A stretch of DNA of 64,000 bases, taken from NCBI GenBank assembly GCA_964590315.1, contig CAZPVS010000002.1, positions 2,693-66,692 of the forward strand, in the 5' to 3' direction. Numbering within the stretch: the stretch's first letter is position 1; every line of letters begins with the position of its first letter. This stretch comes from an uncultured Candidatus Saccharibacteria bacterium (GTDB lineage: Bacteria; Patescibacteriota; Saccharimonadia; Saccharimonadales; JALRHH01). Shown here one piece after another: positions 5,418 to 55,795 of this stretch. The notes below the pieces were generated by a model that searched no databases, had not been told where the DNA came from, and saw nothing but the letters and a program-made list of their open reading frames with translations. A program made the translations under genes and the position numbers.

Positions 5418-5479
5418 ATACAGAAAGCATATCCTTTATATTGTGGTTTACCCCTGTTTAGGCGTATACTATATCGGTA

Positions 5480-8038
5480 ATGATTTTCTCTAAACGACCG
5501 CAAGCTACCCAGGAAACCGACGGTACCGTTCTGTTGCTCCAGGTACCTCGCACCAACGAGAAAAAAGAGCTGGCAGCTGAACAGATGCTCGCCAGTCTTC
5601 ACGGCTTGCTTCTGAGTACACAATCCACGTTTATGGGCCAACGGAGCATCAGGGAACGCCTCAGCTTTGAGATCGCCGTCAAGGCCAAACGTATCGGCTT
5701 CTATGTATGGGTGCCACAGTATCTGAAAAGCTTCGTCGAGGAACAGATTTACGCACAGTATCCTACGGTCCATATTAGTGAGGTGCCTGATTACACTATC
5801 ACCAATGTCATACCGGATGCAGTAGCATTAAGCACCGAACTGAAATTGACAGCGCATGAGGCCCTGCCCATTAAAACGTTTCCGAGTTTTGAAGTTGACC
5901 CCCTTGCCGCAATTACCGCGACATTAGCTCAATTTGATGCGCATGAGGAAGCATGGTTGCAGGTGATTGTTCGCCCGGCCTTAGATAACTGGTACAAAAA
6001 GAGCGAATCGTATGCCGGGAAAATCAGGGGCGGTAAGACCAGTACGACGGGCATGCTCAGTGCACTCTGGGCACCGCCAGAAACAAAATCAGATACCCCC
6101 AAGTTGGCAGAGCATGAATCTGCCCGTGCCAATGCTGCCGAAGAAAAGTCACACAAACTTGCCTATGAAGTAACCGTACGTATCATCTATCGCGGCGCAA
6201 ATGCACCCCAGGCACGGATGCGTATGCAAGCAATTACCGCCAGTTTTAAACAATTTAATACGACATATCTTAATGGGTTCGCGCAGAAGGCATACACCAC
6301 CGGAGAGTATGAGGTTGAACAATATCGAAGCCGTTCGTTCGCCAAACGTGGGTTCGTGCTGAATATCGAAGAAGTTGCCAGTTTGTATCATCTTCCGCAC
6401 ACCAACGTCGAGACCCCGAATATACTGTGGGCAAGTGCCAAGACCGCCGAGCCGCCTGCTACCCTGCCTATTGCCACGCAGGCCAATATGCACGAGGTTA
6501 GCCCCGTGGCGGTGACGAATTTTCGCGGGCATAATACGGTCTTCGGCATGCCACGGACTGATCGTGGACGACACATGTATATCATTGGCCAGACTGGTGT
6601 CGGTAAGTCTGGTATGCTTGAACTCCTGACCATATCCGACATCTATAGCCCGTATGGTTTTGCAGTGATTGATCCACATGGTGATTACGCGCTCAGTATT
6701 TTGAAGCGCATCCCGGAGCATCGTATACAGGACGTCATTTATTTCAATCCGGCAGACGTTGATTTTCCGATTGCTTTTAATCCCATGGAAGTGACTGACG
6801 CGACGCTGAAAACTCATACTGCATCAGAACTCATCGGCGTACTGAAGCGTATGTTTGAATCGTGGGGTCCGCGGCTTGAATACATCCTGCGGTATAGTTT
6901 GCTTGCCCTGCTCGACTATCCGGGCGCAACTATGCTGGATATTACTCGCATATTGACTGAGAAAAAATTTCGGGAAGAAGTTTTATCATATGTGGAAGAT
7001 CCGGTTGTACGGAATTTTTGGACCGTAGAATTTGCCAGCTGGAACGATAAGTTTGCCGCCGAAGCGGTCGCGCCCGTACTGAACAAAGTGGGTGCATTTA
7101 CCGCCAACCCGATTGTCCGTAATATCATTGGTCAGCCGAAAAGCAGTTTTAATATCCGTAAAATTATGGACGAGCGCAAGATACTGATAGTCAACCTGTC
7201 GCGTGGACTCATCGGTGAGGATAATGCCAGCTTACTTGGTGCTTTGCTTGTGACCAAAATCCAGATGGGTGCGATGTCGAGGGCCGATATTCCCCAGGCA
7301 GAGCGTACGCCGTTCTACCTGTATGTGGATGAGTTTCAGAACTTCGCCACCGATTCATTTGCGGTCATTCTGTCGGAAGCTCGTAAATATGCACTAAACC
7401 TCACGGTTGCAAACCAGTATATCGCGCAGATGAGCTTAGGGGTCCGTGACGCGGTGTTTGGCAACGTCGGATCTATCGTTTCTTTCCGGACTAGTGCTGA
7501 TGACGCGCGCGTTATGCTCAAGTATTTTGAGCCAAAGTTTGAGGAAGCAGACATGGTTCATATGCATAATCGCCATTTTGTGGTCAGTATGACCATTGAC
7601 GGTGAAAAGGCACAGGCGTTCTCTGCTACCACCATGCCCATTCCGCCGCCGCCGCCAGACTTTAGCGCATATATCGTGGCACATAGCCGGCAGAATTACT
7701 CGGTTGATCGTGGGCAAATTGAAGAATTCATGCATGACCGCTACCTTGCGCCCGTCAAGCAACAACCCAAACAGCAACCTAAGCAACCAAAACCACGCCC
7801 CGCCGCTGAGCCTAAGCCTGAGACCTATAAGAATATTGAAGAGGTTACTACTGTGGCCGAAGCCCTTTCACCTGTTCAGACGCCTCGAATTGCCGACTCC
7901 CCCGCCCCTGCATCAACACCAGATACTCCTGCTAAGCCAAAGCGAAAGCGCACCCGCCGCCGCAAAAAATCTAATCCCGATTCGACTCCGCAACCCACCG
8001 GTCCAGACGCTGACCCCACCGTCCTCAGAATCCGTTAA
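5480..8038 (+). CDS. HerA/T4CP (TraD/VirD4)-like P-loop ATPase with low-complexity basic/proline C-terminus
   Basis: 852 aa. Walker A GQTGVGKSG, Walker B-like YLYVDEFQNF, ARKYALNLTVANQ motif typical of coupling-protein/HerA ATPases. No N-terminal TM is visible. C-terminal KQQPKQQPKQPKPRP...KPKRKRTRRRKK. Confidence 0.6.
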   Translation: MIFSKRPQATQETDGTVLLLQVPRTNEKKELAAEQMLASLHGLLLSTQSTFMGQRSIRERLSFEIAVKAKRIGFYVWVPQYLKSFVEEQIYAQYPTVHISEVPDYTITNVIPDAVALSTELKLTAHEALPIKTFPSFEVDPLAAITATLAQFDAHEEAWLQVIVRPALDNWYKKSESYAGKIRGGKTSTTGMLSALWAPPETKSDTPKLAEHESARANAAEEKSHKLAYEVTVRIIYRGANAPQARMRMQAITASFKQFNTTYLNGFAQKAYTTGEYEVEQYRSRSFAKRGFVLNIEEVASLYHLPHTNVETPNILWASAKTAEPPATLPIATQANMHEVSPVAVTNFRGHNTVFGMPRTDRGRHMYIIGQTGVGKSGMLELLTISDIYSPYGFAVIDPHGDYALSILKRIPEHRIQDVIYFNPADVDFPIAFNPMEVTDATLKTHTASELIGVLKRMFESWGPRLEYILRYSLLALLDYPGATMLDITRILTEKKFREEVLSYVEDPVVRNFWTVEFASWNDKFAAEAVAPVLNKVGAFTANPIVRNIIGQPKSSFNIRKIMDERKILIVNLSRGLIGEDNASLLGALLVTKIQMGAMSRADIPQAERTPFYLYVDEFQNFATDSFAVILSEARKYALNLTVANQYIAQMSLGVRDAVFGNVGSIVSFRTSADDARVMLKYFEPKFEEADMVHMHNRHFVVSMTIDGEKAQAFSATTMPIPPPPPDFSAYIVAHSRQNYSVDRGQIEEFMHDRYLAPVKQQPKQQPKQPKPRPAAEPKPETYKNIEEVTTVAEALSPVQTPRIADSPAPASTPDTPAKPKRKRTRRRKKSNPDSTPQPTGPDADPTVLRIR

Positions 8039-8180: not shown

Positions 8181-8369
8181 ATGGAGTTTCAAGGAGAGAT
8201 GTCGCGTAAAGAACGCGTAGCATTACACGAAATTCAGCTGCGTTTGGCGGCTGATAAAATGGAGCAAGTGAGCGATCAGCTTGATGAAGAGACGTTATTT
8301 GCGATGCTGGAGGCTGATGCCTTGCTAGCTAGTGTTACGCAAGCAGTAGAGAGGCTACAGAACAGCTAG
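8181..8369 (+). CDS. Small acidic helical hypothetical protein
   Basis: 62-aa ORF downstream of the ATPase. Its end overlaps the convergent gltX stop. No motif recognised. Confidence 0.3.
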   Translation: MEFQGEMSRKERVALHEIQLRLAADKMEQVSDQLDEETLFAMLEADALLASVTQAVERLQNS

Positions 8370-9782
8370 TTGCTGGTTAATGCGGCGGAGGGTGGTCTCT
8401 CTGCCGAGAACGGCGAGGGTGTCGTTGAGGGCTGGGCTAAAGGCGGCTTGGGTGGTGGCGATGCGGATGAGGCTGAAGAGGGTGCCGGGCTTTTGGCCGG
8501 TGGTTTCCAATAGTTGGTTGAGTGTATTCTGCACCGCTTCTGGAGTATAGTCACTGGCGGAAAGTGCCTCCTTGGCTTGCTCGAGCAGGTGTTTGACTTC
8601 GCTGGCGTCGAGCTTTTTGAGTTGCTTATTACCACTAATCAGGTCTGGATTGACAGGTAAATCCGTAAAGAAGTACTCAGTGAGGAGTGGCAATTCTGCA
8701 AAGAATTTTAGTCGCTCTTGTGCGAGGGAGAGGACCTGTTTTTTGTAATCGTCGGTACTGGCCTGAGCGCTTTCTGGCCAGAACCTACTGCATCGTTGGA
8801 AGAGTTCATCAATCGGCAGTGCGCGAATAAATACACCATTCATCCAGTCGAGCCTCCGTTCGTCAAATCGTGCACCAGAGCGCTGCACACGCTCCAGGGT
8901 AAATTTGGTGATGAGTTCATCACGGGTAAAGATCTCTTGTTCGGTGCCGTCATTCCAGCCCATTGATGCGAGGAAGTTAAGCATGGCCTCTGGTGTATAG
9001 CCTTCGTCTCGGTATTCGAGGACGCTCTTTGCTCCATCGCGCTTACTCAGTTTACGCTTGCCATCAGCAGCCATAATATGCGGAACATGTGCAAGTACCG
9101 GTACGTCGAGGCTTAGTGCTTCGTAGAGATTCAAATACTTCGGTACACTTGCGATATATTCGAGCCCGCGAATCACATGAGTTATTTGCATCTCTGCATC
9201 ATCAACAATGTGGGCAAAGTTGTATGTCGGTAGGCCGTCACTTTTGAGGATGATAAAATCGTCAACCGCCTCCTCCCCTGCCGAGAGGTCGCCCATGACC
9301 GCATCATGCCACTGATATACCTTAGGATCTGACTTGAAACGGAGTGGCATGCCGGGCTGCCACGTTGGCGGGTTTTCGGGACGGTATTCACGCGCGAGAA
9401 ATGGTTTTTTGGCTGCTTTGGCCTGTCCGCGAAGTTCAGCCAATTGTTCGGGTGAGCGGGTGTCAGCATAGGCGCGACCATTCTCTATGAGTTTTTGCGC
9501 CCAGGTATGGTATAGGTCTTTCCGTTCACTTTGTGTGTACGGGCCGTAAGCTCCACCTTTGTCAGGACCTTCATCCCAATCAATGCCGAGCCATGTAAGC
9601 GTCTCGTGCATAATCTCGACTGCACCGGCGACTTCACGTGCCTGGTCGGTATCCTCAACGCGGAGGATGAACGTACCGCCTGCCTGTTTGGCAACGAGCC
9701 ATGGAAATAACGCAGAGCGAACATTACCAACGTGGAGAAAACCAGTCGGACTGGGCGCAAAACGAGTTCTGACTTCTTTCAT
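8355..9782 (-). CDS. gltX: Glutamate--tRNA ligase
   Basis: 475 aa. RFAPSPTGFLHVGNVRSAL (HIGH-type motif), KLSKRDG (KMSKS motif), class I GluRS layout. Confidence 0.92.
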   Translation of the reverse strand: MKEVRTRFAPSPTGFLHVGNVRSALFPWLVAKQAGGTFILRVEDTDQAREVAGAVEIMHETLTWLGIDWDEGPDKGGAYGPYTQSERKDLYHTWAQKLIENGRAYADTRSPEQLAELRGQAKAAKKPFLAREYRPENPPTWQPGMPLRFKSDPKVYQWHDAVMGDLSAGEEAVDDFIILKSDGLPTYNFAHIVDDAEMQITHVIRGLEYIASVPKYLNLYEALSLDVPVLAHVPHIMAADGKRKLSKRDGAKSVLEYRDEGYTPEAMLNFLASMGWNDGTEQEIFTRDELITKFTLERVQRSGARFDERRLDWMNGVFIRALPIDELFQRCSRFWPESAQASTDDYKKQVLSLAQERLKFFAELPLLTEYFFTDLPVNPDLISGNKQLKKLDASEVKHLLEQAKEALSASDYTPEAVQNTLNQLLETTGQKPGTLFSLIRIATTQAAFSPALNDTLAVLGRETTLRRINQQLAVL

Positions 9783-10232
9783 ATCAGATACAGTTTATCA
9801 GAAGCTTATGCGTTCTCATATCTTTCACAATCCATACGTGTAACCTATGAACTCTGGAAGATAGCAGATGTAATATATGAAGTGGGTTGAGGGTGGGGTG
9901 TCGGGTGAACAGTGTGTTAGCGCAGAGCGCCGACAAATCGTTAGCCCCCCACGGGACGATTCATCCACACTGTCCACCCGGGGAGCAACGCGAAACTTCG
10001 CGTATCCCTCCCCGCGAAGGAGAATACCGAACAATAATAGCCAAAAAAGCAGCTACGCGTTAGTATTTCCCTTCTGGAATATCAGTAAGACCTCTCGGAC
10101 ACAGTTCATAAAGGCATGTAAATGCATTTATAGCGAAGAGTGAACGGGTCGGCGGTGGGAGAGCCGCACAAATTACTGATATCAGGTATCTCTATATTAC
10201 ATCTGCAGGTACAAATCTCACACTTGAGACTG
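9783..10232 (-). promoter_or_regulatory. Long structured 5' leader or ncRNA upstream of gltX; class unresolved, T-box-like not confirmed
   Basis: About 450 nt without a credible ORF, lying between a near-consensus promoter and the gltX ATG. Nested helices: 9903-9916 pairs with 9966-9979 (13 of 14), 9980-9985 with 10008-10013, 9989-10002 forms a hairpin, and 10079-10088 pairs with 10173-10182 (10 of 10). Confidence 0.5.
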
Positions 10233-10239
10233 TAATTTA

Positions 10240-10268
10240 ATAATAGTATAAAAGTAACAAAAAGTCAA
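10240..10268 (-). promoter_or_regulatory. Sigma70-type promoter driving the gltX leader
   Basis: Minus strand reads TTGACT (10268-10263), a 17-nt spacer, then TATTAT (10245-10240). Confidence 0.6.
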
Positions 10269-10279
10269 CCCAAATAGCG

Positions 10280-11383
10280 CTAGAGACTGCCGGCAATACG
10301 CAGGAGTTGGTCGCTGTTCAGGTCTGCTTCGCCTTCGATGCTGTACCAGACCCCGCCGTCAACCCACGTTGCTTTGGTCCCATCATAAATATAGATTGTA
10401 CGGCCATTGGCTTGATATGTCTGGTATGGTTGGTTGGTGGTGGTCACGAAGTTTTCGAGTAGAGTCTCACTATTCCATGACGAGTTCTTCTGGATGACAT
10501 TGAATTGCCGTTTGTCACTGTGCGATTTGTAATTGATGGTGACTTGACCGGGAGCGTATTGAATTGGTCCGGCGATACTGAATCCTGATGGTTGATAAGA
10601 TGGCAAATTTGCACGGAGTCCCGCACGAGTTGCAGCCATCTTCATGGTGAGTTCTGGCAAGTTTTGGTATGCAAAGAATCCGCCAACTGCAAGTGCCACA
10701 ACTGTAAAGCCTGCTACGCTGACAATACGAGGGCTTACGTGTAACTTCCGGGCAACCTTGTGATGCGCGCGAACCTTTTTAAGCTTTGGTTGCTGGTGAC
10801 TTGTTGCGTTTTCAAGTGCAGATTGGAAGGGTTCGTGCGCTCTTTGAGGCGCAACAGTTGATGACTGTTGTGCCGTAGGCTTTTTTTGGCTTGGCTGCGG
10901 GAGAGCTGCTGGTGCATGTGAAGGGGCCTGACGTACCGGGAGTACCTCGGTCTTGATACTGGCAGCTTTGGCACCGAATTTACTTATCAGACTACTCTGG
11001 GATATTGCGTTGGCACGCAATACACGCCCCGGTTTGATTGCCTCTACTAATGTTTCGGGATGAGTGTTGTGCTCAGGGGACACAAGCGGTGTGGTGGCAC
11101 TTGTTTTGGCGTGTATTTTGGTTGCGATTGGTTTCTTGACGACCGTTCGCATCAGCGTGTGGGATTTCTCAGTCTTGTGATGTACCTTGGTAGCTCCGGG
11201 ATTGGTGGTGGCACTTCGTGGTCGTCGGGTAAAACCGTCAAGATGCTTTGGAGCCTGAGAAGTTATTCGTGCCGCAGTAGTAGCAGGACTTTTCTTTGGT
11301 GTGACTTCACCGCTGATTGGTTTGCCGGTCAAAGCATCAAATCGCTTCCCGTTTAACTCAATTATATGCTGGCGTTTTGCCAT
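10280..11383 (-). CDS. Membrane-anchored hypothetical protein with DUF4367-like C-terminal domain
   Basis: 367 aa. Basic disordered N-half, one TM (VAGFTVVALAVGGFFAY), a beta-rich C-terminal domain. The family assignment is tentative. Confidence 0.55.
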   Translation of the reverse strand: MAKRQHIIELNGKRFDALTGKPISGEVTPKKSPATTAARITSQAPKHLDGFTRRPRSATTNPGATKVHHKTEKSHTLMRTVVKKPIATKIHAKTSATTPLVSPEHNTHPETLVEAIKPGRVLRANAISQSSLISKFGAKAASIKTEVLPVRQAPSHAPAALPQPSQKKPTAQQSSTVAPQRAHEPFQSALENATSHQQPKLKKVRAHHKVARKLHVSPRIVSVAGFTVVALAVGGFFAYQNLPELTMKMAATRAGLRANLPSYQPSGFSIAGPIQYAPGQVTINYKSHSDKRQFNVIQKNSSWNSETLLENFVTTTNQPYQTYQANGRTIYIYDGTKATWVDGGVWYSIEGEADLNSDQLLRIAGSL

Positions 11384-11543
11384 ATGTTTGCTTTTCCCTA
11401 CCTTAAGCGCTTTAGCGTTGTAAGCATATCTTACTCTGATTCATCCCATGTTTGCAACATCTATTTGGATACTATTTTTATCCAGCCTTCCATATAATTT
11501 GTCATCTAGATTACGGGAGCTGATTTCTGTATGCTATATATAG

Positions 11544-15631: not shown

Positions 15632-16459
15632 CTAGAGCTCTATCAGAGAGGATGTGATAGCCTCGAATGCTTGCTTCGGGTGCTGCATCCACCATACAGA
15701 AGCATGGGTTGCAGTCATCAGACGCCATACTCCCCTGTCTTCCGACATTTTGGTAGTACTGACACGTCCTTCGCTTGCAACATAGAATGTATTAAGATGC
15801 TTAACCACGATGTGGGCCGGGTGAACCGTTGTAAGCTCATGCAGGGTGTCAACTAATCGCAACATATCCATGTCAAAAGTCAGCGCACGACTAAATTGCG
15901 CATGGGTAGCTAATTTTTGCAACTGAGCAAAGCTTGCAACTATGGTGGTGTTTGGTCGGTCAAGTACTGCCCGAGGGAGTTGGGTGAAGTAGTCGAGTGC
16001 ATCCTTGGTGATGGTCAGTTGGCCTGTATATTTTGTAATAAAAGCTTCAAGAACAATTGCCGTCTCGCTGTTTCTGCCAAAATCGCCAGGCAGCAGGACT
16101 GCATCTGCCCACGCGGCATTATTAAGCCAGGTGTCGAGACTTGGCTGTGCAAAGCTGCCACTTGGTGTGCTGGCGGCAAACTCCGCTTCCGGCAAGAAAC
16201 CACCAACGATTTTTTGAATTGCGGTTGGCAACACGACACGAGTAGCCCCTGCCCCTGCCCGAGTCGCTTCTGTATAGGCGCTTGCCGGTGCTGAAAAGCC
16301 GTGCAGATTACCCCCAATAATTAGCAGCTTGCCGGCGTGTAATTTGTTTTCAGGCTTACTCCATGCGAGCTCAGGAAACAACGGCTGTGAAACAATTTGA
16401 CGGAGCCAGTAGCTGTTTGTCATGGGTATAATTTTATGGTATAAGTTTTGTAATGCCAA
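15632..16459 (-). CDS. YjeF C-terminal/NAD(P)H-hydrate dehydratase-like carbohydrate kinase fold protein (divergent)
   Basis: 275 aa. HAGKLLIIGGNLHGFSAPASAYTEATRAGAGATRVVLP resembles the HKGxxGxxxxIGGSxxYxGAxxLAAxAAxRxGAG motif. The C-terminal GDVLxG motif is not evident. The start may instead be Met13 (16423). Confidence 0.5.
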   Translation of the reverse strand: MALQNLYHKIIPMTNSYWLRQIVSQPLFPELAWSKPENKLHAGKLLIIGGNLHGFSAPASAYTEATRAGAGATRVVLPTAIQKIVGGFLPEAEFAASTPSGSFAQPSLDTWLNNAAWADAVLLPGDFGRNSETAIVLEAFITKYTGQLTITKDALDYFTQLPRAVLDRPNTTIVASFAQLQKLATHAQFSRALTFDMDMLRLVDTLHELTTVHPAHIVVKHLNTFYVASEGRVSTTKMSEDRGVWRLMTATHASVWWMQHPKQAFEAITSSLIEL

Positions 16460-29689: not shown

Positions 29690-31210
29690 TTAGAAAACGC
29701 GGACTCCTTTCGATTGGAGGAAGCGGATAGGTTCGAGCGAACCTTTACCCCCTGCTCCGCTTCCTTGAACACACAAGCTGATGTCGGTACACACCGTAAA
29801 GTGCAGGTGAGCACCCGTGGAGTAGCCGGTGGAACCGACGCTCCCAAGGGGCTTGCCAGCACTGACAGTGCTACCCTTGCTGATGCCATCAGCAAACGCG
29901 CTCATGTGAGCGTACAGCGTTGCAACGTTACCGTGATCGATGATCACGTAGTTGCCCCAGGCACTGCTGTACTCTGCTCGCTCGATTCTGCCACCGGCTG
30001 CGGCATATATCGGGGTACCAGCAGAGGTGCTCATGTCGGTGCCGTTGTGAAAGCCAGGTGCTCCCGTTACTGGATGGAAACGGAAGCCATAGCTGTCGCT
30101 GAGTCGGTAGCTGAAGTTTTTGAGGGGGGCTTGCCAGGCACCCGTGTACTCTCCGCCACCTGCTTGACTGATGCGTAGGCCGCCCATGAAACCCTGGTTG
30201 TAGTACATGGACTGCACGAGCACATCAGACTTACTGTTCGCCGCATTCAGGAGCTGGTCGTTGCCGAGGTACATCCCGACGTGGTAGATCCCGCTCTGAG
30301 TGCCATCGCTGGACCAGAAGACAAGATCACCGCGCTGGAGCTCCTCCCGGCTGACGTGACTGGTGGTGATACCAGCCTCCCGGTCCCCCGTGTATCCCCA
30401 CTGCTCACGAGAGGTTCGTGGCAACGTGAGACCCGCCTTATCGAACGCCCAGAGCAGGAGTCCCGAGCAGTCGAAACCACCCGGCTCAGTGCCTCCCCAG
30501 ACATAAGGCGTGCCGACGCGTGACTTGGCGAACTCAATGGCTCGTTCCACGATGTCCGACGAACCCTCGCTGCTCACGCAACTCATGTCCGCGGTGATCG
30601 TCTGGGAGGGGCCGCCTGTGTTGGTGAAGTTCAGGCGTCGGGCAATGGCTGCCGCCTCGTCCAGATGAGGGTCATACGCCTCCGGGTGGCCAGAACGCTG
30701 TACTGCCTGCGCCACGTCTCCGTAACCCCGTGTCTGCCAACCTGGTACGGTCAGCATAACGTCGAGGAACTTATTCGTGGCGTAGGTTACGTCCTGCACC
30801 TGTGCGTCCGTACCCCACCCTTGGCTTGGCCGTTGCTGCAACCAGCCCTTGCTATCCCGGTCACCGTAGTCCAGATTTCGAAGTGTCGACTCCTGGATGC
30901 CCGTGATGAGCAAGATGACCAGAACGCGGTACAAGGGTGTGTCCCCGAAATCACCACGGCGGGCATGCACGACTGCGGCAGCCTGACGGACGACTTTCAT
31001 CTGATCCGCCTGGATAACCGCGTCTTTGACTGTTAGGACGCCGGAGCCGACTGAGACGCTCTCCGGGTCGGAGGACACCAGAAGACTGTCGTCAGTCTGG
31101 TCTCCGCACAGCACTTCTGGGGGCGGCGTACTGAACATCATGAGGCCCATGACGAGTGCGAATGGCACGATCAGCACGAGCGACATGATTCCTACTACGG
31201 AACGTCTCAC
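29690..31210 (-). CDS. Secreted multidomain cell-wall hydrolase: unassigned N-domain + NlpC/P60 + M23 peptidase
   Basis: 506 aa with an N-terminal TM/signal. NlpC/P60: GTPYVWGGTEPGGFDCSGLLLWAF...IYHVGMYLG. M23: FHNGTDMSTSAGTPIYAAAGG...GNYVIIDHG...STGYSTGAHLHFTV. Confidence 0.8.
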   Translation of the reverse strand: MRRSVVGIMSLVLIVPFALVMGLMMFSTPPPEVLCGDQTDDSLLVSSDPESVSVGSGVLTVKDAVIQADQMKVVRQAAAVVHARRGDFGDTPLYRVLVILLITGIQESTLRNLDYGDRDSKGWLQQRPSQGWGTDAQVQDVTYATNKFLDVMLTVPGWQTRGYGDVAQAVQRSGHPEAYDPHLDEAAAIARRLNFTNTGGPSQTITADMSCVSSEGSSDIVERAIEFAKSRVGTPYVWGGTEPGGFDCSGLLLWAFDKAGLTLPRTSREQWGYTGDREAGITTSHVSREELQRGDLVFWSSDGTQSGIYHVGMYLGNDQLLNAANSKSDVLVQSMYYNQGFMGGLRISQAGGGEYTGAWQAPLKNFSYRLSDSYGFRFHPVTGAPGFHNGTDMSTSAGTPIYAAAGGRIERAEYSSAWGNYVIIDHGNVATLYAHMSAFADGISKGSTVSAGKPLGSVGSTGYSTGAHLHFTVCTDISLCVQGSGAGGKGSLEPIRFLQSKGVRVF

Positions 31211-31225
31211 GAGAAATCACCTCCT

Positions 31226-31789
31226 TCAGGGTCTCGTGACCTCGTATACGAACCAGTTACCAGCTTCCCGGACCCACACCATCTCGTAGACGGAGCGGTA
31301 AGCTGCCTCACTGGATCCGTCAGGGTAGGACTTGGTCAGCGTGAGGGTTATGGAGCCCTCGGCAGTTTCTGGATCGATTAGTTCCCCCTCGAACCCGTCT
31401 GCTACCTCGGCGCTCCAACTCGCTTCCTCTTGTATGACCTCTGTATCCAGCTCGGGGTCGAACCCAAACTGGCCGGTCTGCAGAAAGTGGTCCGTAGCGA
31501 ACCGGGCTACCTCTGCCATCGCTTCTTCAGCGCTCTCCGCGGTGTCCCGCGAGAAGTACGCTTCAGAGAACGCTTCAGCCCGAAGCTCAAGAGTGTTCTT
31601 GGACTTGGACAGCTCCTCAGGATCCCTCTCCGCACGCGCGGGACTGTTGCTAGCTCCCGCGCGTGCGGTCTCAGAGGGTGAGGCCGGGTCGTCCGAAGGA
31701 CTGCTCTCGGGCCAGAACCACAGGACGACAGCCGTCACGACGAGGAACGCCGTGATCAACGTCCATAGTCGCTTAGGCCACCGCCTCAT
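31226..31789 (-). CDS. Membrane-anchored acidic hypothetical protein of the T4SS cluster
   Basis: 187 aa. N-terminal TM (LWTLITAFLVVTAVVLWFW). Overlaps the upstream ATPase stop by 17 nt. Confidence 0.6.
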   Translation of the reverse strand: MRRWPKRLWTLITAFLVVTAVVLWFWPESSPSDDPASPSETARAGASNSPARAERDPEELSKSKNTLELRAEAFSEAYFSRDTAESAEEAMAEVARFATDHFLQTGQFGFDPELDTEVIQEEASWSAEVADGFEGELIDPETAEGSITLTLTKSYPDGSSEAAYRSVYEMVWVREAGNWFVYEVTRP

Positions 31790-33296
31790 CAGGCTTCACC
31801 TGACCTTTCTGGTATTCCTGCTCAGCGCGCTTGGCACGCGCCCGAACATCGTCCAAGGTGTAGGCGTTGACACGCTCTCGCATGCGTCGAACCACACTGT
31901 TGGTGTCGATGTCCTGCAGGATGGAGGGGGGAATGATGTTCTGCAGCCACAGGACCGGTTGTTCGCCGATCTTGAGCGCGTAACAGCCCTGCTGGAGCCC
32001 CGTCGTCAGGAACGCGTCCTCGTCGGACAACCTGACGGTGTTCACCAGGTAATCCAGTACGTCGGGGTCGTAGGGCTGCCGGAACATCGCTCGGAGGGTC
32101 ACGCCCATGTTGATCGACTTGGCGAGCTGCCGGATTTCGGAATCCGGGTGGCCCACCAGGTTGAGCTGTCGACCGAACTGGGTCAAACCGATGTCGACCA
32201 TGTGGAAGGCCCGGGATTTCCTCGACAGGTTGTCCAGCGCTCGCAGGTAGGCGGCGCTTTCGAAGTCTGCCTGGATTTCCTCAGACACCCGCAGGTGCGG
32301 CACGAGGTCGATCCGGTTGTGAACGAGTGCGAAGGTGAGCCACCCGTTGTAGAAGGTGTCAAACGCCTCTCTGGTCTGGGCCGACATGCGGCTCCGGTCG
32401 ATCAAGACTGCACGACCACTCAACTGCTGGTGCAGCGAGCTTCCACCACCAAAGGCGTTGTCGAACTCCTCACCGGTGAAGCGGGTCATGACCGAAGCCA
32501 TGGTCGCCGCGGCGCGAGCGAACTCGTCCTCGGGCAGGTTCGAGCTCTTGTTGCCCAGTGCCTCCAGTTCGGCGATGAACGCGAGGTCTCCCTCCACGGT
32601 GCCATTGCTGGACTGAGTGAGCATCTCGCGCGCTTGCTCCACGAGCGACGTGTGGCGCTCGGCGTAGAACTCCTCCGCGTCGGACTTGGTGAGACCGTTG
32701 AAGATGTCACCCAACAGCTCCGGCTTGGCCACCCTTCTGAACTTGTGGAACATCAGAGCGGTACCGACCAGAGCCGCCAACGCCTCGTAGCCCTGCGGCT
32801 TCCGCTTGAGGACCAGCTCGGCGATGGTACGGGTCTTGTCGACCATCGAGATGAGGTCGTTGAGCTCCGGGTCGTACGGGTTGATCTTGCGATCTCCCGC
32901 CAGCGGGTCGATGATCTCACCGCCGATTGACTCGAAGACATCCTGCATCTCGGGCCGACCACCTTCAGGCTTGCCGTCGAGGCCAAGTGTTCTCAGCCAA
33001 TGCGGCCGTCCCGTCAGGGGGTCCACACCCGCTTGCTTGCCGGCGGCCATGCGGATCCGGTACTTGACGAAGCTCGACTTGCCACTCTCACGGACACCGT
33101 CGACTCGCCACATAGTGCCGTTGATGATGCCGAGCTCTCGGAGCTCCATCTCGTCACCGCAGTACCAGCACTTGGTCTCCATGTTGAGACCCCACGGCTC
33201 CCCGGTGTCGGTCCCCGGATGCGGAGCACTGACGAAGGGCTGCCACAGAGCTGCTGTCCGTGGGGTACCCTTGAAGGTACGACTCTCCTGGGGCAT
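31773..33296 (-). CDS. VirB4/TraC-type T4SS ATPase, C-terminal (NTPase) half
   Basis: 507 aa. Walker A GVRESGKSSF, late KSRAFHMVDIGLTQ (RK...TQ-type motif), Walker-B position reads HLRVSEE. RBS GGAAAGGAG. Confidence 0.6.
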   Translation of the reverse strand: MPQESRTFKGTPRTAALWQPFVSAPHPGTDTGEPWGLNMETKCWYCGDEMELRELGIINGTMWRVDGVRESGKSSFVKYRIRMAAGKQAGVDPLTGRPHWLRTLGLDGKPEGGRPEMQDVFESIGGEIIDPLAGDRKINPYDPELNDLISMVDKTRTIAELVLKRKPQGYEALAALVGTALMFHKFRRVAKPELLGDIFNGLTKSDAEEFYAERHTSLVEQAREMLTQSSNGTVEGDLAFIAELEALGNKSSNLPEDEFARAAATMASVMTRFTGEEFDNAFGGGSSLHQQLSGRAVLIDRSRMSAQTREAFDTFYNGWLTFALVHNRIDLVPHLRVSEEIQADFESAAYLRALDNLSRKSRAFHMVDIGLTQFGRQLNLVGHPDSEIRQLAKSINMGVTLRAMFRQPYDPDVLDYLVNTVRLSDEDAFLTTGLQQGCYALKIGEQPVLWLQNIIPPSILQDIDTNSVVRRMRERVNAYTLDDVRARAKRAEQEYQKGQVKPDEAVA

Positions 33297-33516
33297 GACA
33301 CACGCTCCTTTCCGGGCGGTATCTCTATCAGATGTGTTTTCCTGTTAGGTTGTTAAGGTACGTGATGCGGTTGTCGCACCTCAGTATTACCATTAAGCGT
33401 AATAACAATACTGAAGTGTGTAACTGCCCCGGAGGATTATGAAAGCTCAGTAAAGAGCCAGCAATATCCTCCGGGGCGAGTCGCACCTCATTCGCTGGAT
33501 TTTGGTCCAGCTACGT

Positions 33517-35085
33517 TTACAACAGGGCTAGGGCGGTGGTAGAGCTCCACAAGGATGGGTACTGGTAGTCCCCGCCCTCGATGAGCTCACCGGAGAGGCC
33601 AAGGCCTTCGACAAAAGCCTCGAGGGCTTCCAGTTCGTCCTCGCAGACATCGTGTGCCGTGACCGTTCGGGTCTTGCCGTCCTCGTCGAGGAGGAGGCGA
33701 TCCGCCGTACGGACTGCAACCAAGATGCTGTAGGACTGACTGAACTGACTCGCAAACAGCGTGTCTCCTCGTTGGTTGAGGCGCTCGCTGCGAGCTGTCG
33801 ACTTCCTGGTCTCCACCAGTCCGAGCCAGTCAACGAATCCCTGAATGAAGTTGCTGCCAACTTCAATCCAGTGAACCTCCCGGTCGCTCCTGACGGCTTC
33901 GCCGACGAGTGCAACACTGGGATAGCTGACGGGCAGGTTCGCCATGAACTCCTCACGGAAAAAGCCTTGCCAGACCCGCTCAGGTGCACCCGTGATGCGG
34001 TACACCTTCGTCACGGTTCCGTCCGTGAGGCTGTCCTTGTCGGAGACGACCATCTTCTCGTCCGGCCAGTGGGACACCACGTCATTCCCGCCGTCCACGT
34101 CCGCCTTGGCGTAGTACTCCTGGATCTTGGCGATGTCCCAGGCGCCTCTGACGAACGCATGCAGGCCGGACTCGTTGAGTGGCTGCGGATTGGAAACCCC
34201 GCACGCGCGCAAGTGTTGCTGAGCGGTCGTAACGATCTTTGCCACCGGAAGTCTCCGGAGGTGCCGTTCGCTGATGAGTCCGCTCTCCTGCGCCTTGGCG
34301 AAGCTGCCTTCCCGCTTGATGGTCAGCACGGTTGCCATCCACGGCTTGCGGCCGTATTCAGGCATGATCTGCCGCATCTCCTCCCATGGCTCAGCCATGT
34401 TCAGAATCGCCCGGTCTTCGTCCGTCAGCTCGTCCTCGTTCTTGAAACGAGCTTCCGGGTGGACCAAGTCGGGATGCAACAGATACCCAAGCGCATTGTG
34501 CAGATGCGTCTCGTCAAAAGGATCTTGACGGAAGACGTACCCAACGCCCAGGCTGTAACCGCGCTGCTTGAGAGCGGCCCGCTTGACCATCGTCTCGAAG
34601 TTGCTGTAGGCACGGTCTTGACCAACGAGTGACTGCGACGGGATAGTTGAACCTCCCCCCTCAATCACCACGCTGAGACTGTTGTCCTGCAGGTTGTAGA
34701 GCACTGCCGTCTCCGGCGTGTTCCTCCCCGCTGGGACGCTCGTCACCCAGAACGGAATGACGGTCTCATTGCCCTTGGCGTCCTTCTTCTTGACGCGGAT
34801 GACCTTCTCCTCGTCGAAGACGATGCCCTTGCGGACACGAACACGGAACCAGCCGCGTAGTCCTCGAACAAAGATCCGGTACATCCGTGCGCGGTTGCGC
34901 CGTACCATCAGACCAAACCAGACAAGTGCCAGTCCAGCCTGGGGCAAACTCCCGTAGAAGTTTCCGACGATGAAGCCGATGGCGATGACCGCAATAGTCA
35001 GTTTCCAGTCGCTTCCGCTAAACCGGAAAAAGCCTACGTCGAGCCGGGACGGATGGAGCTCTTCATGAGCTTCCTGTGTGATCAT
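33517..35085 (-). CDS. VirB3/VirB4 N-terminal-like membrane protein (resembles the actinobacterial SCO6880-type family)
   Basis: 522 aa. Two N-terminal TMs (WKLTIAVIAIGFIVGNFYG, AGLALVWFGLMV), then a large soluble domain. Located immediately upstream of the ATPase half. Confidence 0.5.
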   Translation of the reverse strand: MITQEAHEELHPSRLDVGFFRFSGSDWKLTIAVIAIGFIVGNFYGSLPQAGLALVWFGLMVRRNRARMYRIFVRGLRGWFRVRVRKGIVFDEEKVIRVKKKDAKGNETVIPFWVTSVPAGRNTPETAVLYNLQDNSLSVVIEGGGSTIPSQSLVGQDRAYSNFETMVKRAALKQRGYSLGVGYVFRQDPFDETHLHNALGYLLHPDLVHPEARFKNEDELTDEDRAILNMAEPWEEMRQIMPEYGRKPWMATVLTIKREGSFAKAQESGLISERHLRRLPVAKIVTTAQQHLRACGVSNPQPLNESGLHAFVRGAWDIAKIQEYYAKADVDGGNDVVSHWPDEKMVVSDKDSLTDGTVTKVYRITGAPERVWQGFFREEFMANLPVSYPSVALVGEAVRSDREVHWIEVGSNFIQGFVDWLGLVETRKSTARSERLNQRGDTLFASQFSQSYSILVAVRTADRLLLDEDGKTRTVTAHDVCEDELEALEAFVEGLGLSGELIEGGDYQYPSLWSSTTALALL

Positions 35086-35110
35086 GGGGTTTCACCTCCT
35101 TGGTGATCGA

Positions 35111-36349
35111 TTACCGTCCCGGCTTGTGGGTGGGCGGTAGGGGTTGTGTCTTCTCACGTCCAGGTATGGAGTGAGTGACGGGCAGCTCGGGCTGCTTGGG
35201 CTCTACGGGCGTGTGGATGGGCTTCGCGGCACCATTTGTTGCCGGAGGACTAGCCTGCTTGCTCGGCGGAGACTTGGAAGCCTGCACTTTGCTCGCTACG
35301 GCTGTTCCAGCGGCTGCTGAGGTACCTCCAGTTGCGGCTACCGCCCCAACCTTCAATGCCGTGCCCGTCTTGTCCAGCACCTTCTTACGGATGCGGGACT
35401 TGCCTTCTTCCGTGAGCTTGGAAACCTGAGAGGGCTGCTTGGCGCTGACCCTGCTCTGGTTGACGTTGTTCGCGTCGACCTTGCCTCGGTTGTTGACGGT
35501 GGCGTCCACGTTACCCTTGACGCGCTGCGTGAAGGATCCTCGACCCCCCGTCATCTTGACTGTCTGACGGTAGGTGAACTTGAAGAGGCGTGACTGCAAC
35601 CACAGACCGGCAATGAAACCTGTCATGGTCATGATCACAACCCCGAGTGACGAATCACCCAGTTCGGTATCCCCCAGCATCTCTGCGATGTCAAGGCAGA
35701 GGATCATGAGCGGCCGTCCGAAAATCATCGTGACGAACGCTGCACCGATCATACCGTCGCAGAGGGCTCCGTTCTTGTCGGACAGCGGTCGAAATGCCAC
35801 TATGAGCAGCCCGCCGTACTTGACGGCGAGGTTGTACAGCTCATACGCGAACACCACGACCAGCATGCATCCGCCCAGGAACGCAGTGGGAGCAAACGCT
35901 GCGGCTACGATCAGCGGGTTGTCGCTCGCGACACCCATCGACAGCCAGCTGCGGCTCCCGCCCTCAGCGTCGTAGAAGTCGGCCTTCTCGCTCAGGATGT
36001 CGCCCACCGAGATCATCACATCGATCAGGTAGAACCAGATCGGCCATGCGGCAGTGATGAAAACCCCGATGACGATGGCATCGAAGAACTGGTAGATCCG
36101 GGATGACCGGAACATGACAATGCACGCCAGGATGATTGTCAGCAGGTAGGCGACGAAGCCTGACAAGCCGAGCACCTCACTACCGAAGTAGTCAAGTGCC
36201 GCCATGTTGTCCGCACGAGGCGGGTGCATGGCGAGCTCCTGGAAAGCACCGACGAACTCTCGGTAGGCGTCCTTGACCAAATCAGCGAACATGCTGAACG
36301 GATCTGGAAAATCGCCGGGCCAGAGGTCAATCTTTGGAGCGACGATCAT
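35111..36349 (-). CDS. VirB6/TrbL-like polytopic T4SS membrane protein with Ala/Pro/Lys-rich tail
   Basis: 412 aa with at least 6 hydrophobic helices, then a low-complexity C-terminus (AATGGTSAAAGTAVASKVQASKSPPSKQASPP). Confidence 0.5.
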   Translation of the reverse strand: MIVAPKIDLWPGDFPDPFSMFADLVKDAYREFVGAFQELAMHPPRADNMAALDYFGSEVLGLSGFVAYLLTIILACIVMFRSSRIYQFFDAIVIGVFITAAWPIWFYLIDVMISVGDILSEKADFYDAEGGSRSWLSMGVASDNPLIVAAAFAPTAFLGGCMLVVVFAYELYNLAVKYGGLLIVAFRPLSDKNGALCDGMIGAAFVTMIFGRPLMILCLDIAEMLGDTELGDSSLGVVIMTMTGFIAGLWLQSRLFKFTYRQTVKMTGGRGSFTQRVKGNVDATVNNRGKVDANNVNQSRVSAKQPSQVSKLTEEGKSRIRKKVLDKTGTALKVGAVAATGGTSAAAGTAVASKVQASKSPPSKQASPPATNGAAKPIHTPVEPKQPELPVTHSIPGREKTQPLPPTHKPGR

Positions 36350-36416
36350 GAGAACTCCTTTTGGTCATTCCCCCGTCCAGGACTTTCTTTGCCTGGACGG
36401 GGGCGGGACGATCAGG

Positions 36417-36737
36417 TCAGCAGGGGGAGCTGACCGGGTTGATGCCGCTGTTCAGGATGATGGCGAACACCACGATCCCGATGGCTCCCCCGATCAGGTT
36501 TCCCCTGTGGTTCTTCAGGAGGACAGCACCGAGCGCGAGCGCTGCGATGATGACCACGAAGAACACCTGCCCGAGGGACAGGGACAGGCCGATGAAGTTC
36601 CCGATGGGCTGGTTGAGCTCGCCCATCAGATCCCTGGACCAACCGCATCGGGGCTCGATGTCGGCCTCGAACGGCATGGCCATGGTGATGTAGAAGTGCA
36701 GCATCTGACCCTGGACGTACGTCAGGAGCGTCGTCAT
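36417..36737 (-). CDS. Small two-TM membrane protein (pilin/VirB2-position candidate)
   Basis: 106 aa with a strong SD (AAAGGAGGTG). Two C-terminal helices (LSLSLGQVFFVVIIAALALGAVLL, IGGAIGIVVFAIILN). Chosen over the overlapping alternative-frame ORFs. Confidence 0.45.
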   Translation of the reverse strand: MTTLLTYVQGQMLHFYITMAMPFEADIEPRCGWSRDLMGELNQPIGNFIGLSLSLGQVFFVVIIAALALGAVLLKNHRGNLIGGAIGIVVFAIILNSGINPVSSPC

Positions 36738-36750
36738 GACGCACCTCCTT

Positions 36751-55627: not shown

Positions 55628-55795
55628 CCGTATCCATTATACACACCCACGGGATAAACGAGGTCTCGAGGTATGTTAATTATGATTCGTCATAAATAAT
55701 AATTACGATGTTGCATGTACGGCAAGAACTAGTCCGTGCCCACCTGTCCCTACTGATCAATTACGCAAAATATATAGATACACCCAGGGAGTTTT

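Follow-up and report, generated by a model that had tools for sequence, protein, structure and literature searches.

A large structured RNA encoded upstream of gltX in a Saccharibacteria subclade, probably by a gene of its own

Upstream of gltX, the glutamyl-tRNA synthetase gene, a genome of the Saccharibacteria lineage (TM7, candidate phyla radiation) carries a real, structured RNA on the gltX strand. We analysed it within a stretch of 64,000 nucleotides (referred to here as the window), to which all coordinates refer unless another locus is named. The structure is conserved and covaries in relatives, its orientation is that of gltX, and it is absent from some closely related lineages. We consider it probable that the sequence is a stand-alone gene (10268-9819, minus strand) for an ornate non-coding RNA (ncRNA) of about 415 nt, which would have its own promoter and belong to a new, clade-restricted family. 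The initial annotation of this DNA had claimed a structured RNA at the site and had named an independent ncRNA as a fallback to a gltX leader; both are supported by covariation, by strand-asymmetric folding and by promoter conservation in relatives.

The family is best described as absent from Rfam, clade-restricted and previously undescribed, found upstream of gltX in one Saccharibacteria subclade when gltX loci are searched. The literature on structured and noncoding RNAs, transcription start sites and small RNAs in Saccharibacteria and the candidate phyla radiation yielded nothing on such an RNA.

The gltX locus and the architecture of the RNA

gltX (8355-9782, minus strand) encodes a protein with the Pfam domains tRNA-synt_1c and Anticodon_2, whose closest homologues are GltX proteins of Saccharibacteria. 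Upstream of it, in the same orientation, is an ORF of 367 amino acids (10280-11383) whose product has a disordered N-terminus and one transmembrane helix; its relatives give a weak DUF4367 match. The spacer from the stop of this ORF (10280) to the gltX ATG (9782) measures 497 nt and contains short ORFs only, neither the frame nor the strand of which is conserved among the relatives. The initial impression that the region holds no credible ORF was thus borne out, and the check for a conserved small ORF, a six-frame comparison with the relatives, gave no conserved frame in the spacer. An antisense ORF of 159 amino acids that is called in one relative (L161) matched only itself among 5.8 billion proteins and was judged spurious. 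Convergent with gltX is a gene for an 852-amino-acid HerA/DUF87-type ATPase (5480-8038, plus strand) with a weak match to the TrwB coupling protein; most relatives keep it in synteny, with the annotation DUF8128 plus DUF87.

The predicted promoter of the RNA (10240-10268, minus strand) is of the sigma-70 type and consists of the -35 box TTGACT (10268-10263), a 17-nt spacer and the -10 box TATTAT (10245-10240), which places the RNA start near 10233. Its near-consensus character, pointed out in the initial annotation, is confirmed by agreement at 10 of 12 consensus positions. Promoter-like sites scoring at least 9 of 12 are located 8-41 nt upstream of the closing helix P1 (see below) in eight of nine relatives with a type A element. 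Overlooked until now was a second signal that lies outside the RNA, namely gltX's own extended -10 promoter, TGATAAACT (9800-9792, minus strand), 9 nt before the ATG. The motif CTG(A/T)TA(A/G)ACT is kept 7-9 nt before the gltX ATG in all relatives, including those that lack the RNA element (L081/L170/L171 and L172). There is no SD before gltX. Likewise, no intrinsic terminator is found in the spacer or after its last hairpin, H7, in agreement with the earlier remark that a U-tract terminator is missing.

Starts of this kind are common in the window. Among its ORFs of at least 200 amino acids, 29 of 41 have no SD, and many carry a TAnnnT -10-like box 5-10 nt before the start codon (for example at 5455-5479, 11519-11543, 16428-16452 and 55628-55652). 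This pattern in the sequence suggests that leaderless or near-leaderless mRNAs are widespread in the genome.

The RNA itself, read 5′ to 3′ on the minus strand, is organized in the order H0, P1, H2, H3, an extra H3b, H4, a linker and H7, and spans 343 nt from P1 to P1. H0 (10211-10233) is the 5′-terminal hairpin of the minimum free energy (MFE) fold, ACAGUCUCA-AGUG-UGAGAUUUGU; at the same position a hairpin of other sequence was read directly in L001, L161, L165, L167, L168 and L173. P1, a helix that the initial annotation overlooked, closes the whole structured body. Its 5′ strand, GCAGAUGUAAUAUA (10193-10206), and its 3′ strand, UAUAUUACAUCUGC (9864-9877), form a perfect 14-bp inverted repeat, with 10206-10193 pairing to 9864-9877.

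Inside P1, the H2 domain (10074-10186) consists of an outer helix, a perfect 10 bp between 10182-10173 and 10088-10079, around sub-hairpins, one of which (H2a, 10167-10151) has the C-rich loop CUCUCCCA. It is followed in the MFE fold by H3 (10017-10073), a long irregular hairpin, AAGGGAAAUAC...GUAUUCUCCUU, and by H3b (9980-10013), the hairpin GGGGAGGGAUACGCGAAGUUUCGCGUUGCUCCCC, which runs from 10013 to 9980 with GGGGAG...CUCCCC as its helix and agrees with the initial description. H4 (9903-9979) is a three-way junction, the outer 14-bp helix of which pairs GGGUGGACAGUGUG with CACACUGUUCACCC with one G.U; H4a (9964-9933) and H4b (9931-9919) lie inside it in the MFE fold. Over 15 nt, 9902-9916 is 93% paired with 9966-9980, and the single mismatch is a G.U in the minus-strand RNA. 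The three helices that had been described by eye, those of H2, H3b and H4, were all recovered by an inverted-repeat search and are present in the MFE fold.

The 3′ part begins with a C/A-rich linker, GACACCCCACCCUCAACCCACUUCA (9878-9902), predicted to be single-stranded; in all relatives, too, the P1 3′ strand comes after a C/A-rich linker. Abutting P1 is the conserved 3′ hairpin H7 (9819-9863), UAUCUUCCAGAGUU...AUUGUGAAAGAUA, which is supported by an alignment of ten sequences (A1), by its covariation and by a covariance model (R1) that joins the P1 3′ strand and H7. The modules H5 and H6, found in most relatives, are missing from the window element, where H4 leads straight into the linker. 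The window copy is a structural variant of what we call type A.

Folding, covariation and distribution in relatives

The strength of the fold was compared with that of dinucleotide shuffles. For a 458-nt stretch, z = -7.07 and none of 100 shuffles is as stable, while the 343-nt core has z = -9.6 in the sense orientation and -5.0 as its reverse complement. All 11 elements of the family behave in this way, with sense z values of -6.4 to -15.9, each stronger than that of its own antisense strand. Five long gltX-upstream spacers from other Saccharibacteria, used as controls, have sense z values of -0.8 to +1.0.

All 11 elements have a P1 helix built on the core GCAGAYG / CRUCUGC; the window version, GCAGAUG...CAUCUGC, is lengthened to 14 bp. 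At the sixth pair, the window and L177 have U-A where the others have C-G, and the inner extensions vary in sequence (UAAUAUA, AAAU, UUUU, UAUGUG etc.) yet keep their pairing. For H7, 5 of 14 pairs in the ten-sequence alignment A1 are changed on both sides, and none of 500 shuffles reaches the observed covariation score; 89% of the aligned cells are paired, compared with 26-61% in slid controls. An unsupervised MAFFT alignment of five full-length type A relatives, folded with RNAalifold, gave 103 pairs in 11 helices that are 90% paired (32-41% in slid controls). The covariation check on gltX-upstream relatives that the initial annotation had called for came out in favour of the structure: in this five-relative fold, 25 pairs are changed on both sides, against 14.5 ± 2.4 in shuffles (0 of 500). 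The number of related sequences behind these tests is 5-10, and phylogeny is not taken into account in the shuffle control. H6 and H4 were compared by eye, since their MAFFT alignments across all lineages are structurally inconsistent.

Model R1 scores 58-76 bits in the sense and 21-33 bits in the antisense orientation across members, and 66.2 versus 21 bits in the window, whose own sequence was included in the model. As R1 was built from the same sequences that it scores, these values speak to orientation and copy number, not to membership as an independent test. The strict sequence conservation of P1 and of H7 in its lower part hints at a site for protein binding or processing.

To place the element in its lineage, we compared 160 Saccharibacteria gltX loci and 17 loci of closer relatives. 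The gltX spacer is 17-110 nt long in most Saccharibacteria; in the clade with 75-80% GltX identity to the window it usually measures 480-1030 nt. It is in at least nine related lineages at this level of identity that homologous elements occupy the same position. The two closest relatives by GltX (P0003 and P0004, 80-81% identical) have spacers of 685-690 nt. Sequence similarity is concentrated at the 3′ end of the element. Searches of the spacer against the 160 loci with nhmmer and BLASTN matched the last ~90 nt in L001 and 19 nt in L081, and BLASTN of the window against L164, L165 and L177 gave E values of 3e-8 to 2e-9 in the H7 region; the part of the window element that can be aligned with relatives by sequence is its last 50-90 nt. 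With the match limited in this way, the interior is not alignable by sequence, and its homology rests on architecture and on a short motif at the base of H4.

The common design comprises a promoter, H0, P1, long GC-rich hairpins, H4, mostly H5 and H6, the C/A-rich linker, the P1 3′ strand and H7. Read directly from the sequences, the base of H4 is GGG(N)UG...CA(N)CCC, followed in most members of both types (A and B) by ACC within 0-3 nt. H6 is a small conserved hairpin, GAGCYUUYGCUC-CAAC, that together with H5 is found in most copies, and H7 abuts P1 with the family sequence UAUCUUCCAGAAUU...AUUGUGAAAGAUA. The window element shows the P1 core, an H7 directly 3′ of P1 (UAUCUUCCAGA...UUGUGAAAGAUA), and a promoter and 5′ hairpin before P1, all between the gene for a DUF4367-like membrane protein and gltX.

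Type A elements measure 341-513 nt from P1 to P1. Type B is a second element of 286-288 nt, in tandem with type A, that occurs in two lineages, L164 (318-603) and L165/L166 (2666-2953 of L165). It shares the P1 core and contains a junction resembling H4 and a hairpin resembling H6; its 3′ hairpin differs, however, and its apical loops are G-rich, not C-rich. In L164 and L165, type B sits between type A and gltX and separates them by more than 400 nt.

No element is present at the gltX locus of L081/L170/L171 and L172, in which only 57-58 nt lie between the upstream gene and gltX. On a neighbour-joining tree of GltX these lineages are nested among lineages that have the element, which indicates that it was lost. 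We also searched for copies elsewhere. BLASTN against the 64-kb window returned only the self-match and R1 a single copy, R1 detected no further copy in the other 160 loci nor, across ~1.2 Mb of related loci, anywhere beyond the gltX spacer, and BLASTN of the element against phage and plasmid collections gave no match. Matches of two conserved motifs in viral contigs (9 and 13) were rejected as chance, with R1 scores of at most 17.7 bits and unrelated contexts.

Some of the more distant Saccharibacteria have other features in this spacer. In L003 (2397-3000), L077 (2712-3000) and L004 (2734-3000), whose GltX is 61-69% identical to that of the window, there are strongly folded elements upstream of gltX that are unrelated in sequence (z of about -11, -7 and -5, respectively). 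The layout in L003 resembles that of the family, with an intrinsic terminator of the upstream gene first, a closing helix next and a 3′ hairpin last. These elements could be very distant relatives or independent insertions. L002 (1084-1560; GltX 72% identical) lacks the RNA element and has in its spacer an apparent small ORF on the opposite strand, read by eye as rich in hydrophobic residues; its product may be a membrane peptide.

A gene of its own or a gltX leader

In the stand-alone reading, which we prefer, transcription would start from the RNA's own sigma-70-type promoter, the promoter and both RNA ends being predictions. The RNA would start with the small 5′ hairpin H0, continue into a ~315-nt body in which long hairpins and three-way junctions (H2, H3, H3b and H4) lie under the long-range helix P1, and end in the conserved H7. 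Because H7 abuts P1, both ends of the RNA would be clamped together by H0, P1 and H7, and an end-to-end clamp is typical of stable stand-alone RNAs. Such an RNA would act in trans, likely as a scaffold or regulator, with the clamp and the C-rich apical loops binding protein or G-rich RNA sequences. gltX, for its part, would be expressed from its own near-leaderless promoter; since the gltX AUG has no SD, a long 5′ UTR ending there would make a poor gltX message.

The alternative that survives best, although we judge it unlikely, is a cis-acting leader. Here the promoter at 10268-10240 would read through the fold into gltX, and the fold would control elongation, processing or stability, perhaps by binding tRNA-Glu, glutamate or a protein; this is the initial proposal in a non-T-box form. 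Aminoacyl-tRNA synthetase genes are often controlled by structured leaders, and all copies found lie directly upstream of gltX in its orientation, which partly reflects a search that covered gltX loci. Furthermore, there is no terminator between the element and gltX, so that transcripts may read through, in which case the RNA could belong to a long gltX 5′ UTR. Yet the element is lost as a whole in nested relatives, and the extended -10 box 9 nt from the gltX ATG is kept with or without it. In L164 and L165 a second element intervenes between type A and the gene that it would control. The interior, where a ligand pocket would be expected, is not conserved in sequence. Finally, models of the T-box and other riboswitches give no match, and neither a terminator/antiterminator alternative nor an SD-sequestering pair can be recognised before gltX, a gene that has no SD to sequester. 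Taken as a whole, the element is probably not a gltX leader.

The more specific idea of a T-box or another tRNA-sensing leader, put forward in the initial annotation, found no support, and the element is not a T-box. Rfam models for the T-box (RF00230), RNase P (RF00010), tmRNA (RF00023) and 6S RNA (RF00013), suggested there as a check, were run on both strands without a match, RF00230, a model that includes Stem I (the part with the specifier loop), failing even at E ≤ 10. The 14-nt T-box core, AGGGUGGNACCGCG, with up to three mismatches has four matches in the window, which is the chance level, and none in 9783-10279. The GGGTGG that had been taken as reminiscent of the T-box core is, as GGGUGG at 9979-9974, simply part of the 5′ strand of H4. 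An expression platform, whether a terminator/antiterminator or an SD-sequestering pair, is likewise not evident before gltX. Comparison also speaks against the idea: gltX keeps its own -10 box in all relatives, and L081/L170/L171 and L172 do without the element. Like a T-box, the RNA is structured, directly upstream of an aminoacyl-tRNA synthetase gene and co-oriented with it; unlike a T-box, it is dispensable in close relatives, is two to three times as long, is closed end to end by a helix, and precedes a gene that has a proximal promoter and no SD. A long structured spacer before an aminoacyl-tRNA synthetase gene thus need not be a T-box, least of all in a genome with many SD-less, -10-boxed starts.

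The stand-alone RNA reading was also weighed against an element that acts, or once acted, as DNA: the relic of a mobile element (MITE-like, with the terminal inverted repeats GCAGAYGT...ACRTCTGC) or a palindromic insertion, with no RNA function. We regard this as very unlikely. It would account for terminal inverted repeats of 7-14 bp, for the presence/absence polymorphism at one site and the tandem duplicates, and for a spacer that is variable and has taken up other insertions in L002, L003, L004 and L077. A mobile element would not be expected to be single-copy in the 64-kb window and in ~1.2 Mb of related loci, without a match in phage and plasmid collections and with only chance matches in viral contigs. 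Moreover, the inverted termini (P1) are present, but their inner parts covary as an RNA helix does, the internal helices covary too, folding and model scores are strand-asymmetric, and G.U pairs are formed by the sense strand only. The promoter and the 5′ hairpin are conserved upstream of P1, that is, outside the repeats, and on the GltX tree the element is distributed as expected for vertical descent with loss. Because its flanks cannot be aligned with the empty sites, no target-site duplication is recognisable.

Less probable still is a divergent housekeeping RNA (RNase P RNA, a 6S/Ms1-like RNA, tmRNA or SRP RNA) that the Rfam models miss in a candidate-phyla lineage. At the gathering score, Rfam 15 cmscan of the window returned only two tRNAs, located elsewhere. 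With all 4227 models, both RNase P families (RF00010 and RF00011) included, 9650-10400 gave no match on either strand at E ≤ 10, and eight relatives gave nothing relevant at E ≤ 5, with one chance match across the Rfam scans; ARAGORN found no tmRNA. The element's own promoter, its closing helix from 5′ to 3′ end and a size in the RNase P range would suit such an RNA, but its absence from the gltX locus of nested relatives is unexpected for an essential RNA, and the interior evolves too fast for a catalytic core.

That the region is merely decaying sequence, for example a pseudogene remnant that folds well by chance, is hardly credible: the interior is not conserved in sequence between lineages, as decay would predict, but z is extreme in 11 of 11 copies and near 0 in control spacers, compensatory changes are present, P1, H7 and the promoter are conserved across 20-25% GltX divergence, and there is no protein-coding signal.

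Resemblance to known RNAs and possible functions

Among known RNAs, the element resembles large ornate bacterial RNAs such as OLE, GOLLD, ROOL, HEARO and raiA, whose functions are partly known at best; it matches none of their Rfam models. Like them, it is several hundred nucleotides long, with many GC-rich stems in a less GC-rich genome and covarying multi-helix junctions, has no ORF, occurs in a narrow phylogenetic range and is predicted to be its own transcription unit. It differs from them in that its sequence is conserved only in P1, H7, the base of H4 and H6, the interior being far more variable, and in that no associated protein gene is evident.

A second comparison is with Staphylococcus aureus RNAIII and with RsaE/RoxS. 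The likeness lies in the length, the many hairpins and the closeness of the 5′ and 3′ regions to each other, and, across the family, in several C-rich apical loops (UCCC/CCCC) that could pair with G-rich, SD-like sequences. The element is not homologous to these RNAs and encodes no peptide. In addition, many genes of this genome have no SD, so that classic SD occlusion would at best fit a minority of them. 6S RNA and mycobacterial Ms1, both abundant stand-alone ncRNAs, share with the element a closing stem and, in some bacteria, the occurrence of paralogous pairs; they are rod-like with a central bubble, whereas the element is multi-branched, 290-510 nt in size and without an Rfam match.

The apical loops were examined across the family. 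Hairpin loops with CCCC number 12, compared with 2.8 ± 1.7 in dinucleotide shuffles (maximum 7). This enrichment is a result at the level of the family, as the window alone has one C-rich (CCC) loop where 0.5 is expected. Loops with GGG number 5, compared with 0.6 expected, and include both type B copies as well as the H4a loop of the window (GUGGG), which is complementary to the H2a loop (CCCAC) of the same RNA. By analogy with other ornate RNAs, the complementarity and enrichment are compatible with loop-loop tertiary contacts; they are also compatible with pairing to G-rich targets, as in regulators of the RNAIII or RsaE type.

These features allow us to suggest, tentatively, that this is a first glimpse of a new class of large modular ncRNA specific to an episymbiotic, genome-reduced Saccharibacteria lineage. 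The H0/P1/H7 clamp might serve as a protein-binding or stabilising handle, and the fast-evolving arms, whose loops are C-rich in type A and G-rich in type B, as interchangeable modules for pairing or kissing. If so, the arms might regulate several mRNAs, sequester a protein or form RNA complexes between A and B, in the manner of an RNAIII-like hub in a candidate phylum. To our knowledge, no regulatory RNA has been characterised in this phylum, and we are aware of almost nothing on RNA-based regulation in the candidate phyla radiation. Saccharibacteria are ultra-small and have genomes of ~0.8-1 Mb with very little non-coding DNA; to keep 0.4-1 kb of it for a structured RNA suggests a real function. 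A family that is supported by covariation and absent from Rfam offers metatranscriptomics and structure probing a concrete target. With a conserved end clamp, rapidly diverging arms, tandem paralogues and loss in some lineages, it lends itself to comparison.

Elsewhere in the window, a block at 29690-38115 stands out by its GC content (~60% versus ~48% elsewhere). Of its five large ORFs, four have SD-like sites (mostly GGAGG), in contrast to the majority of the window's genes. The first ORF encodes a cell-wall hydrolase with NlpC/P60 and Peptidase_M23 domains, and the other four have no Pfam match. The block has the appearance of an island acquired horizontally, with a high-GC host as a possible source, or of a chimeric assembly.
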